This document shows positions 10,921-21,346 of a stretch of 64,000 nt of DNA, in pieces. The notes beneath the pieces were generated by a model that saw only the letters and a program-made list of their open reading frames with translations, did not search any database and was not told where the DNA came from. Both the position numbers and the translations under genes were made by a program. The DNA is from Naegleria gruberi (lineage: Eukaryota), in assembly GCA_000004985.1 (NCBI GenBank), contig GG738901.1; one strand, given 5' to 3'. Positions within the stretch are counted from its first letter, which is position 1. The number at the start of each line of letters is the position of its first letter.

Positions 10921-12211
10921 ATGGGTCTTAGACACGCCGTTCCAACCAAGGATACTCACTATGATGAATCCGAAGATATCTACTGTGTTTGTGTAGGTAT
11001 GCAAGGAAGCAGACCAGAAATGGAAGATGCTCACTGCTTGAGACTTGATATTCAAAACGATTTGAAGACACTCAAACAAAAGCCACACCAATACAAATCA
11101 TTGAACTTCTTTGGTGTATTTGACGGTCACGCTGGAGCTGAAGCCTCCAAGTTCTGTGCTGATAATATTCTTAGTGTTGTTGATGAACATTTGGAAAAGT
11201 CATCAAACTTGGAACTCTCAGACGAATTGATTACTGCTGCCTACTTGGCCCTTGATGAAAAGTTAAAAACTTATATGGAAAAGGTTCAAGGAATTAGCCC
11301 ATTCAATGGAAGTGGTTCAACTGGTATAACTTGTTTTGTCAAGGTTGCCGATTGTGATGTTGAAGCAATTTGTGCCAACGTTGGTGACTCTCGTTGTATC
11401 ATGTACCACAATGGAAAGACTATTGAAATGTCTTTCGATCAAAAGCCAATGAACGAAAGTAAGTTTAAAATTCTCACAATAATACTAAATAATAATAGTT
11501 GAAAAGAAGAGAATTGAAGCTGCTGATTGTACTGTCACTATGAATCGTGTTAATGGTAATCTTGCTGTTGCACGTGCTTTTGGTGATTTCCGTTATAAGG
11601 GTAATGAAAAGAAGAAGGCTGAAGATCAAGCTGTTTGTTGTGTTCCAGAAATTATCAGACAAAAGATGGACGGATTCACTAAAGGAAATAAGACTTCTCC
11701 AAGTTTCTTGATCTTGGCTTGTGATGGTTTGTGGGATAAATTCACAAATGAAGAAGCTGCTTTATATGTCAAACAACAATTGGAAAAGTATGATATTTTC
11801 AATGAAACTGAAATTTCTAGTGATTTGATGCAACCAATTAAGATTACCTGGTTGAACAAGAAGGTTGACGAATGGGATGCTGCTGATGTTGAAGGATGGA
11901 TTGAAAGTTTAGGTGTACCATATAACAATTATTTCTTAAGCAAGTTCAGAAATGGTACTGACCTTAAGCAAATCATGTTACAAGAAGATAAGTTCAATCG
12001 TTTGAAGGAAACTTTAAGACATGTTTCAAACTTTGTAGATGAATTCAGAAAGAAGTTCATGGAAAGAAATGAAATACAAGAAAAGCCAAAGACAGTGCCA
12101 AAGACAACTCGTGAAAAGTTGATCCATTTGACTGAACGTATGGTTGACTATGCAGTTTTTGAAAAGAGAAGTGATGACAACGTTTCCGTGGCCATTATTT
12201 TGTTCAAGTAA
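10921..12211 (+). CDS. Protein phosphatase 2C (PPM family) with about 100-aa SAM-like insertion; 2 exons join(10921..11458,11499..12211)
   Basis: Motifs MEDAH, FGVFDGHAG, GSTG, ANVGDSR, then the 40-nt intron GTAAGT...AATAG (11459..11498). Exon 2 restores ..QKPMNEIEKKRIEAA..RVNGNLAVARAFGD, ..ACDGLWD and terminal DNVSVAIILF. Phase 1/2 consistent. Insert WDAADVEGWIESLGVPYNNYFLSKFRNGTDLKQIMLQEDKF fits the SAM consensus. Confidence 0.85.
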
Positions 12212-15279: not shown

Positions 15280-16614
15280 TTATTTTAACAAGGAAGAGTC
15301 ATACTGATCTCTAGTTTCTAAAATCTTGTACTTATTTTCTAGAGGACATTCGCCTCCACTTACAGTATCCAAAGAGAATCGATGGATGTAACCATCAAAG
15401 CTTACTACTACAAGTGCATCATTATTTGGAGTAATTCCACAAATATTTCTTGTTTCGTTTTCTGGTAATTTTACAGAAGCATGAGCAAAGTTACGGACAC
15501 TATCCCACATGTTGTGAAGAGTGTCACTAATTGATCCAACATTTTGTGTTCTCTTCTTTCTGAATAATAAATTAAATATTTAAATATATTATCATGCAAA
15601 ACTTACTCGTCCTTTTCTTGATTTTGATTCAATTTAAAAACGTGAACGGTTCCCTTGTCACTTGAAACACAAACCATTGAAGAATCTGAAGAAAATGAAA
15701 TACTATAAATACGAGCTGCTGTTGAACCTCTTCTCAAGGTATGCAATAGTTCACATCCTGGAATTGAGAAAATTCTAATCACAGTACCCTTTCCTGATGC
15801 TGTTGCAAGCATGGTACCATCTTGATTGAATTGTATTATTGATACGTCACTCTTATGGGCTTTGATAAAGTTGACTTGTTTAGGGTTGATGGCATCGTAG
15901 AGAATAACATCTCCGGACTCTGTTGGTGATGGATATGCCATATAACTAACGTCATTCTTTCCTCCACTGACTCCTGTTGGTGTAGATGAAGGTATGCTAG
16001 AAAGTACACACAATCCTAAATTGTTTTTTGTTTCAATTGTCCTGAGAATTTTCATAGATGAAATATCAAAGATATGAATCTTATCTTGAAGTACAACTAC
16101 AAGTCTTCTCTTTGATACTTTAACATTTAAAATTGTACTAGTAAAGTTTAGTTCACAAATTGCCTTGTTCTCACTCGAGTTGAAAAGTTGAAGTCTTCTA
16201 GGACTTAAACTTGCTTGATGTCCGGCACCAACAAGAGCTAATAAACTAGAGCTATATAACATTTGTACAAGACTCATTCCTCCAGCTACATGAATAGTAA
16301 ATTAATAATTAATATATTAGAATATTGGAATGATGATGTGATATATATCATAGTCCATTATTATCATCGTCATCACGATGAGTATGCAAATAATAATAAT
16401 AATACCATCAAATATTAATAATAATAATATGATTAATTAATATCAAAGGAATAATAAAACACGTACGTTGGGAATAGCATTTCTTCAACGGATCCAATGT
16501 AAAGATTTTATATGAACAATCGGTACCAACACTCACACAACTGCAATCTTGATTAAAAGCAGCAAACAAAATCTTCTCCGATCCTCCAGAAATATGATCT
16601 GTTGATGTACTCAT
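15280..16614 (-). CDS. WIPI/Atg18-family WD40 beta-propeller (PROPPIN); 3 exons join(16614..16467,16285..15607,15559..15280)
   Basis: Strong similarity to WIPI1/2 throughout (ILFAAFNQDCSCVSVGTDCSYKIFTL; LATASGKGTVIRIFSIP; L/FRRG motif as HTLRRGSTAARIYSISFS; TVHVFKL; C-terminal VVVSFDGYIHRFSLDTVSGGEC). Introns are GTACGT..TAG (181 nt, AT-rich with AAT runs) and GTAAGT..CAG (47 nt). Phases are consistent. ORF-track start 16626 is TTG; first ATG is 16614. Confidence 0.85.
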
Positions 16615-17290: not shown

Positions 17291-20200
17291 ATGAATTTTC
17301 ATATCGTTCTCTTACTCTTGTTGGTCATCATTAATTTGATGATATTTTCATCATCGGCTCTTGCAACGCTTTCCCTTGGACCAGAAGAAGCAAATGAAAA
17401 AGCAACAAGAACATCATTCATTCCAAATAATAATAATAATAATAACAACTTTGCTAGAGAACAACAGCTGAAACAACGTAGAAGGTTTCTTATTAACAAT
17501 GATCCAATTTATGGGAAATTAAATTCATATTTCCATGAGGAGGAAACAAGAGCCTTGGCGACTACTAGATATTCAACAACAACAACTTCAGTGAATGGAG
17601 AGTTCTTTTCGAATATTAGAGAAGAGCAAGAACAGTCGTCTGGTGTTCTCTCATCATCAGCAACACGGAATGTTCATAAAGAAAATAATGTAAATAATCA
17701 AACAAGAGGTTATGATAGAAGATTCGCTAGGGAACAATTGATGGTCGAAGAAGTATCTGCTACTGTATCATTATATGATTCGGCTGCTGTGACTGCTAAA
17801 GCAAGCATTCCTACAGTTTATCTATTCGAAAGTTTGGATGAGACAAGTGAAAATAATACATGCACAAGTGTGAATTCTCCTTGTAAGAATTGGACCATGG
17901 CTGTGAATAAGGTATTCTCTTTGTGTGAAGCCTCTGTTAGCAAATTGCCCTCTAAAACTGTTAACAGTTGTGAGGCAAAAATTGAATTATTAAGTGGAGT
18001 GAATAGTTGTGAAGGAGTTATTCCACAACTTTTATTATATCAAATCAAAATTTCAATTTATAGTAGTACAGCTCAATATAAGATGATATGTGGAGGAAAT
18101 ACCTTGTCACTTTTTGGAAATTTATTGACTGGTGTTTCAGATGCCTCAAATGTTTCACTCTCATTCAATAATATTGGCTTGACAAATGTGGTTTTTATAT
18201 TTTCTTCATTTGGAGAAGTTTCTTTCAATGGAACTAAACTAGATGGTGTGTTTTTCAATACCACTATCATTTCGTAAGTTTTCTTTCAGTATATATGAAT
18301 TGCAACTTATTTCTTGATAATTTAAATAACCTTAGAAGGTTCACCCTCAGCAAATCTTACGCTTCAGATTTGTACTTGGCTCAATTTTTTACCAAATTCT
18401 CACCAATTTCAACAGATTTTCTAACACTACAACAATCAATTTTGGAATATTGCTATTTTTCTGTAACATCAAGGGCAATAGATATAAAATCAAATACCAT
18501 GACCAATATTCGGATGACTTTTGATGCTCTTAGTAGAGTAGTAATAAGAGATAGCTCATTTTCTGATAGTACAGTACTCATTTCATCGAGTGATTTGTTG
18601 ATTGGTACAGGTTTTGCAGAATTTTCATTCTATATCGTAAATATTAGCTTTTCGAGATCGAGCTTAATTGTCACCTATTATAGAAATGGAAGAGCTCTTG
18701 TCTCTTCAAAACTTTATGTGATTGGATGCAATTTTTCTGGAAAAGCGCCATATTATCAAGTATCAGTAGTTGACTTTACAACAATAACTATTGATAATTG
18801 TATATTTAATGGACTCAATACCTATTCAGAATATAGTGCCCTCTCAATCAAGTCATACTATTCTAAAACTGAGGCAGAAATAACCAGTACAACTTTTAGC
18901 AATTATTATTCAAAAGCCTCAGGTGCAGCTCTTAATATTTATGGTGTTGAAATTGGATACATAGCCGATTGTATATTCAAGAATAACACAGCCCTCGATA
19001 ATGGTAAGTATGAAATTGTAATTAATAATATTAATTGTGCTTTTAATATAGGCGGAGCACTAACAATTGACAGAGTTGGATTAGCAACTGTTCAATACTG
19101 TAAATTTGTGGAAAACAAGTTTGAGAGTAAGAGAGAAAGTCAATTCTTTTCATATGGTGGAGGTGCATTATATGTTTACAAGTCATTTATTGAATTAACC
19201 AAGAATTTATTCACTAAAAATTCAGCTAATGGACTAGGTGGTGCTATCATTGTAAATACAGCCTGTAGTGTCAAGACATCAAATGATGTGTTTGATGATA
19301 ATTATTCACTCTATGGAGGAGCTATTGCTTACACAGATTATCAATTGAACGATTGTAGTAATGTAGTTTTCTTTACTTATAATTCTACTTTCATTAATAA
19401 TAAGGCAAAGTATTTTGGAGGATTCTTCTTTGGGAGAAAGTTACCAGTCATGTACTTTGATACTTTTACCAGCTTTAGACTCAATTCAGCACAATTGAGC
19501 GGAGGAGGAATTTATTATTTGGAAAAACCTGCTGCTAAGAAGGTTATTAATGGAGATCCTGAAAAGCTTGGTTTTGGTAATACAGGCATGTACACTAGCT
19601 CAAATATTGAATCATTCCCAACTCGAATGGAGGTATACTCCAAGAGTAGCATGGAATCTCAGAGTGGCGTTCTAACTAATATGCACTTGTTGCTATTGGA
19701 TGAAAACAACCAAACAACTCCATACTTCCCTGGAATGATGGACTTGGAGTTACAAGCTGATGGACTATCTTTTATTGTGACAAAGTTTACTTTTTCCAAC
19801 ACTAGTAGAACTCTCAAGTTGGACTATACTTTTTATTCCAAAACCGCTGAATTTCCATTCCAAAGCAATCTACTATTAATTTTGAGATTGAAAGAATTTG
19901 ATATTGCTCAATATTTTGAGTTCACTGCGACAACATGTAATATTGGTTATTATGTCATTAGAGATGAGGACAATGAAACATTGTACAAGTGTAGCCTTAC
20001 TCTTACGATCACCCTGTCAGCAACTATTGCTGGAATCTTATTGTTATTTATTGGATTTTTAGTAGGATTCTTCTTTTTAAGAATGATTAGAAGAATTACT
20101 ACAATAGTAATGGATTACAAGAAGAAGGAGCTAGCTGAAAAGGAGTTGACTGAAAGATTGATGAGCTATCAAGTCTTATTCGAACATGGAGACGTAGAAT

Positions 20201-21346
20201 TGGATGGCTATAAGCAGTGGATGATTCCAGTGAAAGATTTGGAGATTATTTCCAAGATTGGAGAAGGAGCTTACGGAACAGTTTACAAGGCAGTATGTTA
20301 TTTTTTATTCTTTCAATGATTATTTAATATTATTTATAATAGTTGTGGAAGACCAATGTAGAAGTGGCCATAAAATCCATCAAAGTTGATGAAGATTCAA
20401 TCTCTACTTTTGAACATGAAGCATCTTTATTGAGTAGTTGTAGACACTTGAATATTGTTACATTTTATGGATGTACAATAACTGGAGAAACTAATTATCT
20501 GGTTGAGGAATATATGAGTGGAGGTGGATTAGACAAGATGCTATATCGTGTTGGTAAAGGGCTAATTGCAATGAGTCTCAAACAAAAACTAAGAATTTTG
20601 ATTGATGTGTCTTGTGGAATGAGCTATCTCAATGAACTCAAACCTCCAATTATTCACAGGTACGTTCAACATTTCAATATTTTAATTTAACAAATTCTAA
20701 TCAGAGATTTGAAACCTGAGAATATCCTTCTTACAAGGGACATGGTAGCTAAGGTTTCTGATTTTGGCTTATCTACCATTTCAAATCCTCAGAGAACAAT
20801 GACATGCCAAATTGGCAGTTTATTCTATATGGCTCCAGGTAAGTTTATTCTTTGGATTATTCATCATTACTGAACTCAAAACCAGAACTTTTCAACAGCA
20901 ATTATTACAATGAGAAGTGTGATGTCTACTCCTTCTCAATTGTCATGTGGGAATTATTCTTTGGAACTCGTTATTCATCCTTTGGAGGTGATGCCAATGA
21001 TCGATTCAAATTTTTACTCACAAGAGAACAAATTTTGGAACTTTCCACACTCGCAACCAGTTCAATTGCCTTTGTGTTGAAGAAGGTTGCTGAGGGAACA
21101 AGACTTCCACTCCCAAACAGTACATCTAGTCACCTCAAATGGATTAGAGCTTTCATGCCTGAACATTCCAGTAATGATGAACATTGTAAAGTTATTGTAA
21201 AGGTGGTAGAGAAGTATTTTACTCTGATGGTAGAATGTTGGGATAACGATCACAGCAAGCGTCCTGGATTCAGAGATATTATGTATAGATTGAAGGAAAT
21301 GGTGGATTTGCTTTATTTTGATGAGTGTACAGTGAGAACTTTGTAA
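17291..21346 (+). CDS. Receptor-like TKL-type protein kinase with beta-helix-repeat ectodomain; 5 exons join(17291..18273,18336..20292,20343..20659,20705..20838,20886..21346)
   Basis: Signal peptide MNFHIVLLLLLVIINLMIFSSSALA. About 900-aa ectodomain with recurrent GG[AG][LI]/N-x-[FA]-x-N turns (GGALTIDRV, GGGALYVYKS, GLGGAIIVNTA, YGGAIAYTDY, SGGGIYYL). TM ITLSATIAGILLLFIGFLVGFFFL. Kinase motifs GEGAYGTVYKA, VAIK, HRDLKPENILL, DFGLS, MAPE, DVYSFSIVMWE. Introns are GTAAGT..TAG (62 nt), GTATGT..TAG (50), GTACGT..CAG (45), GTAAGT..CAG (47). All phases are consistent with the six-frame ORFs 17255..18277, 18295..20319, 20343..20690, 20852..21346. Confidence 0.8.

Follow-up and report, generated by a model that had tools for sequence, protein, structure and literature searches.

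A protein phosphatase gene of the PP2C (PPM) family occupies positions 10921 to 12211, on the plus strand, of a 64,000-nucleotide (nt) stretch of Naegleria gruberi DNA (contig GG738901.1; hereafter the window). Its product contains an insert of about 105 residues (278-382, encoded by 11792-12106) that lies between core helices α5 and α6 of the catalytic domain and has no counterpart in other PP2Cs. The insert is coding sequence, and it probably folds as a divergent sterile alpha motif (SAM) domain. The parts of the gene and its product are listed here in chain order; helix boundaries come from an AlphaFold2 (AF2) model.

10921-11458, plus strand: exon 1; residues 1-179 and the first base of codon 180
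11459-11498, plus strand: intron of 40 nt, with GTAAGT at its start, a branch-like TACTAAA site, and TAG at its end
11499-12211, plus strand: exon 2; residues 180-416, with the stop codon at 12209-12211
11717-11737, plus strand: ACDGLWD motif; residues 253-259, with the PPM-fold metal ligand D255
11747-11791, plus strand: PP2C helix α5; residues 263-277, the final core element ahead of the insert (AF2 model) and the point at which the alignment with PPM1B stops
11792-11866, plus strand: N-terminal linker of the insert; residues 278-302, with P292, W297, and V302 invariant in alignments and a predicted local distance difference test score (pLDDT) of ~96 in the full-length model
11867-12079, plus strand: predicted five-helix core with SAM fold; residues 303-373, with helices at 307-316, 321-325, 332-340, 342-351, and 353-373
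12080-12106, plus strand: C-terminal linker of the insert; residues 374-382, QEKPKTVPK (alignment and model)
12107-12163, plus strand: PP2C helix α6; residues 383-401, where the core resumes (AF2 model and alignment with other PP2Cs)
12176-12190, plus strand: DNVSV motif; residues 406-410, the start of the last β-strand, in which D406 is a metal ligand

The phosphatase gene and its extra segment

A preliminary description, drawn from the letters of this DNA, had placed a PP2C gene at 10921-12211, and the placement is borne out. Two plus-strand open reading frames (ORFs), 10921-11502 and 11540-12211, fuse in frame once the 40-nt intron is excised, and the frame across the gene is restored only with that intron removed. 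The spliced coding sequence (1251 nt) specifies a 416-residue product that matches, at 100% identity from end to end, an N. gruberi protein already in the databases (XP_002671969.1, EFC39225.1, UniProt D2VVF2; NAEGRDRAFT_59327). The gene model obtained from the window is the public N. gruberi gene model, under which the protein is named just 'predicted protein' or 'protein-serine/threonine phosphatase'.

The Pfam PP2C profile (PF00481) matches this product with an expect value (E) of 3.5e-52 and a score of 178.1 bits (gathering cut-off, 20.3) across profile positions 7-244 of 255. Among solved structures, its closest sequence relatives are the human enzymes PPM1B and PPM1A (E 1e-33 to 1e-35). 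Exon 1 encodes the motifs EMEDAH, FGVFDGHAG, GST, NVGDSR, and DQKP, and the positions for metal and phosphate binding are retained: R31; D36; D68-G69-H70; D255; and D406. From the alignment with PPM1B and PPM1A, we take these to be the equivalents of PPM1A residues R33, D38, D60, G61, H62, D239, and D282. In an alignment of 78 PP2C sequences, D255 and G256 are invariant, N407 is nearly so, and R31, D36, D68, G69, H70, and D406 are conserved in at least 90%; D406 is also invariant in an alignment of 14 sequences. The protein displays the PPM β-sandwich fold. The PF00481 match, the retained motif positions, and a confident full-length model (see below) together make it very probable that the enzyme is active, as a phosphatase of the PPM1A/PPM1B/Ptc2-3 type.

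What sets this protein apart is the distance between its last two metal-binding motifs. The preliminary description had counted about 150 residues between ACDGLWD and DNxSV. That figure holds for the total spacing: 151 residues separate the Asp of CDG from the Asp of DN, against a median of 49 (range 43-90) in 65 other PP2Cs. It does not hold for the additional material, which comes to ~105 residues; about 107 residues of the query lie opposite gaps in more than 80% of the same 65 sequences.

Is the extra segment present in the mature protein? An unrecognised intron, which the preliminary description had said would overturn its proposal, or an annotation artefact would leave an ordinary PP2C as the true enzyme. 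Short introns do occur in Naegleria genes, and one sits 300 nt upstream within this PP2C gene. However, the segment consists of 105 open codons, and comparison of the window gene with another Naegleria contig (L002) gives a ratio of nonsynonymous to synonymous substitution rates (dN/dS) of 0.064 for the insert, compared with 0.124 for the N-terminal core (dS ~0.6). This contig, of 1275 nt, encodes an 88%-identical orthologue, P0001; it is collinear with the window gene and lacks exactly the 40 intron nt and nothing else. The insert is thus found in an intron-less gene copy, as it is in many contigs of ~1.4 kb with full ORFs. Its position and sequence are kept from Naegleria to homologues of only ~40% identity, it folds confidently in the full-length model, and its removal would delete nothing that restores the canonical α5-α6 turn. 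The conserved site, the low dN/dS, and the uninterrupted, collinear ORF of L002 establish that the insert is coding sequence under strong purifying selection. A hidden intron in this region is rejected on the collinearity and the substitution pattern, and we regard an artefact of any such kind as scarcely credible.

Comparison of orthologues, as the preliminary description had proposed, shows the insert to be conserved, always at one and the same position, in ten homologues. The sequence is readily recognised in Naegleria fowleri (85% identity overall) and Willaertia magna (75%); six further carriers, ~40% identical, come from metagenomes and Sequence Read Archive (SRA) assemblies. An exhaustive profile search added two more insert-bearing PP2Cs, P0121 and P0122. 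The architecture is rare: it accounts for ~10 clusters at 90% identity among 5.8 billion proteins, and the insert profile identifies five insert-bearing PP2C clusters among 1.84 billion representative proteins. None of the animal PP2Cs compared has it, and a search of the six-frame translation of the 64-kb window with the insert profile found no second copy. Pre-computed annotations of all the homologues show PP2C domains only, and full-text literature searches found no description of a PP2C-SAM combination or of the Naegleria protein.

Some variations among these sequences lie outside the insert. DQKP (residues 173-176, 11437-11448) stands where DHKP is usual, not only in Naegleria and Willaertia but also in four of the six distant insert-bearing homologues; the His is retained in the insert-free sequences P0011, P0012, P0013, and P0021 (14-sequence alignment). 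A Met-Gly start (MGL, residues 1-3, 10921-10929) is common to all full-length PP2Cs with the insert and to most other aligned PP2Cs. PPM1A and PPM1B are N-myristoylated at Gly2, and by analogy the window PP2C may carry a lipid anchor at its Met-Gly N-terminus. Finally, P0008 (L003, 425-1921) holds a 17-residue stretch, HAGMYKFFTLTNILTHHTTGW, that is missing from all other homologues; this is probably a short intron that a prokaryotic gene caller translated as coding sequence, the metagenome contig being eukaryotic.

Likeness to SAM domains

The preliminary description rested its SAM assignment on a peptide, WLNKKVDEW...KFNRL, said to fit the SAM consensus, and placed the domain at about residues 250-330. 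The peptide is located at residues 297-348 (11849-12004), and the insert aligns with SAM domains in the classical register (W..DV..WL..lg..Y...F....G.dL). The placement needs correction, the core being at about 303-373 (11867-12079). The match to Pfam SAM_1 (PF00536) falls below the family cut-off: the window insert scores 13-14 bits (E 0.07-0.13; cut-off, 23), and only over profile positions 1-38 of 64. When the ten homologous inserts were scanned alone, four touched SAM_1 (best E 0.0014), one touched SAM_2, and one SAM_PNT. Among homologues scanned at full length, P0005 scores 16.6 bits against SAM_1 (E 0.011).

Profile comparisons carry more of the signal. A hidden Markov model (HMM) built from the ten inserts was compared with PDB sequences, and SAM domains make up 18 of 20 among the matches listed, including the whole top of the ranking: the SARM1 SAM (E 0.0047); the SAM of the bifunctional apoptosis regulator (BAR; 0.045); and the Shank2 SAM (0.4). 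Against the 1.84 billion representative proteins, the insert profile has six matches, namely the five insert-bearing PP2Cs and P0123, the sole match that is not a PP2C (E 3e-4). Pfam identifies the matched region of P0123 as SAM_PNT, at 30.4 bits (threshold, 24), and hhalign aligns the insert profile to this region with 96.9% probability and to SARM1 SAM1 with 35.6%. The HMM support that the preliminary description had looked for is therefore found in the ranking of SARM1 and in P0123, and not at the curated thresholds of SAM_1 and SAM_2. The profile-level signal is consistent in direction and borderline in its statistics, and identity to canonical SAM domains is 12-19%. Taken together, the insert resembles SAM domains beyond chance; the likeness is weak at the level of single sequences, and its support comes from profile and fold comparisons.

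The structural comparison uses a full-length AF2 model of the orthologue P0001, with a mean pLDDT of 95.9 and a predicted template modelling score (pTM) of 0.92. Here the outcome is clear: five helices fall within residues 307-373, the five-helix bundle of ~70 residues that is typical of SAM domains and that the preliminary description had proposed to look for. The model, the profiles, and the location of the insert between α5 and α6 all support a SAM-like module embedded in the PP2C domain rather than appended to it. We class the insert as a divergent SAM-fold domain that is probably homologous to SAM domains, although it does not qualify for membership of Pfam SAM_1.

The model also bears on where the module sits. 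Helix α5 (15 residues) and helix α6 (19 residues) each have one end no more than 4-5 residues from a metal ligand, D259/D255 for the former and D406 for the latter. Given the helix lengths and ends in the model and the known topology of PPM1A, the insertion point should lie at the far pole of the β-sandwich, with more than 20 Å between it and the metal centre. Gating of the active site by the insert is unlikely, since the module would sit at this far pole.

Possible roles of the insert

The reading that we favour, with a probability of roughly 60%, is a competent-looking PP2C whose nested SAM-fold module, gained once, serves as a protein-protein interaction module independent of catalysis. The short α5-α6 turn would have been replaced by ~105 residues, comprising two linkers and a divergent five-helix bundle of SAM fold, in a common ancestor of Naegleria, Willaertia, and the other insert-bearing eukaryotes. 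The insert would then localise the phosphatase, through hetero-association with SAM-containing or other partners or through self-association. Because of what SAM domains generally do, docking or self-association that positions the phosphatase is the most likely role. Tethering to SAM-containing kinases or scaffolds, as the preliminary description had suggested, is a reasonable proposal by the same analogy.

Several observations weigh against this interpretation. No insert of the ten reaches the gathering score of SAM_1, SAM_2 (PF07647), or SAM_PNT (PF02198). Foldseek comparison with the PDB gives no match at E ≤ 0.001; the best value is 0.26, and all top matches are SAM domains. The confident full-length model is that of the 88%-identical orthologue and not of the window protein, whose insert, modelled alone, attains moderate confidence (pLDDT 62.6). 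The position and exposure of the SAM surface, and its rigid docking, are deduced from pTM and topology alone. Moreover, the conserved positions in the insert alignment are mostly core hydrophobics, and no conserved interaction surface is evident. An alternative is that the insert is a helical bundle of generic kind without homology to SAM domains, the likeness having arisen by convergence or through an error in predicting the structure; we think this quite unlikely.

The difference in confidence between the whole chain (pTM 0.92) and the isolated insert can be taken in two ways. It suggests that the SAM bundle and the conserved linker (P292, W297, V302) pack rigidly on the catalytic core rather than dangle from it. 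It also suggests that the insert needs core packing, as would be expected under the main rival explanation: that the insert has a SAM fold but a purely intramolecular function, stabilising or allosterically tuning the PP2C core without external partners or oligomers. The invariant insert positions fit this too, being largely in the hydrophobic core, and at the surface the Naegleria group and the distant group do not agree. A comparable part may be played in PPM1A by its flap or its C-terminal helical domain. However, a module of 105 residues with an autonomous fold, held at a dN/dS of 0.06 and located at the far pole, would be a costly stabiliser, when 65 other PP2Cs manage with a turn of ~5 residues; and SAM domains are overwhelmingly interaction modules. 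For these reasons we hold a purely intramolecular function to be unlikely, and prefer the interaction module.

The interaction module could be elaborated further. By analogy with SAM domains elsewhere, the nested domain might make a self-assembling or scaffold-anchored PP2C, in which head-to-tail SAM-SAM polymers, or docking to a SAM kinase or scaffold, place the enzyme in a higher-order complex that delivers its activity. This is a tentative and on balance doubtful extension. If true, a polymerising or scaffold-anchored PP2C would add to PPM regulation a mode without precedent among described PP2Cs, with a single origin in Heterolobosea and related protists.

SAM domains of the Smaug/Vts1 type bind RNA, and an insert of this type would target the phosphatase to RNA or ribonucleoprotein particles. 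The insert resembles protein-binding SAM domains; the RNA-binding type is very improbable, and was rejected as a leading model. Equivalence to the C-terminal helical domain of PPM1A was rejected as well, because the chain position differs.

Genomic setting and known systems

The window is AT-rich, with a GC fraction of ~0.34. About 400 nt upstream of the PP2C start codon, at 10420-10560, is a T/G-rich low-complexity tract (ttgttgttattgttg...), which is probably promoter or intergenic sequence. Other ORFs in the window belong to diverse families.

2908-4380, minus strand: ORF of 490 residues with a membrane attack complex/perforin (MACPF) domain (28 bits; cut-off, 21.5), which by this match may be a pore-forming protein
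5085-6017, plus strand: ORF for an EF-hand protein
15603-16277, minus strand: PROPPIN/WD40 (WIPI/Atg18-like) ORF, 140 bits; since the match begins at profile position 47, this is probably a single exon from a longer gene
18295-20319, plus strand: ORF of 674 residues that weakly matches the repeat of Chlamydia polymorphic membrane proteins (23.8 bits; cut-off, 20.6), a family unexpected in a eukaryote; either a surface protein of repeat type or chance could account for the match

The nesting of a SAM-fold domain within a PP2C is rare and apparently undescribed, although the sequence itself has been public as an uncharacterised 'predicted protein'. What is gained is an annotation and a hypothesis rather than a new family; the source annotations give the PP2C domain only.

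The nearest relative of the insert outside the PP2Cs is P0123, a free-standing, multi-domain protein without a phosphatase. Its 656 residues include two SAM-like domains, a C-terminal ubiquitin-like domain, and Asn/Asp-rich low-complexity sequence. P0123 could be a relative of the insert donor, or could represent a candidate type of partner.

Known SAM domains lie at protein termini or between independent domains. Canonical examples are those of SARM1 (SAM1), BAR/BFAR, CNK/Hyphen, polyhomeotic/Sfmbt, Shank, and ETV6/TEL (PNT). In contrast to all of these, the Naegleria insert has both of its ends tied to an enzyme core. It would thereby exemplify a natural SAM domain that tolerates insertion into another domain.

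On the phosphatase side, human PPM1A and PPM1B and yeast Ptc2 and Ptc3 are of the same catalytic type as the window PP2C. PPM1A (1A6Q) has only a short turn between α5 and α6, and its additional three-helix domain is appended past the last strand. The window PP2C lacks the appended domain and instead has its ~105-residue module, of predicted SAM fold, nested in the α5-α6 turn. Since the protein is conserved in the pathogen N. fowleri and the nested architecture is absent from the animal PP2Cs compared, it may offer a lineage-specific point of access to Naegleria signalling.

The PPM family is without separate regulatory subunits, and its members acquire specificity and localisation from added segments. 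Examples include the FHA domain of KAPP; the PH domain and leucine-rich repeats (LRR) of PHLPP; the acidic insert of PPM1G; the B-loop of PPM1D; the flap extensions of PPM1H; and the additions in TAB1. With PPMs of the KAPP, PHLPP, and PPM1G kind, the window PP2C shares the principle of an added accessory segment. To our knowledge, such additions are either domains at the termini or loops, disordered or short, in the vicinity of the flap or active site; they include no autonomous SAM fold, and the α5-α6 turn hosts none of them. An autonomous interaction domain built into the catalytic fold, at a distance from the active site, would give the family a new answer to its lack of regulatory subunits.
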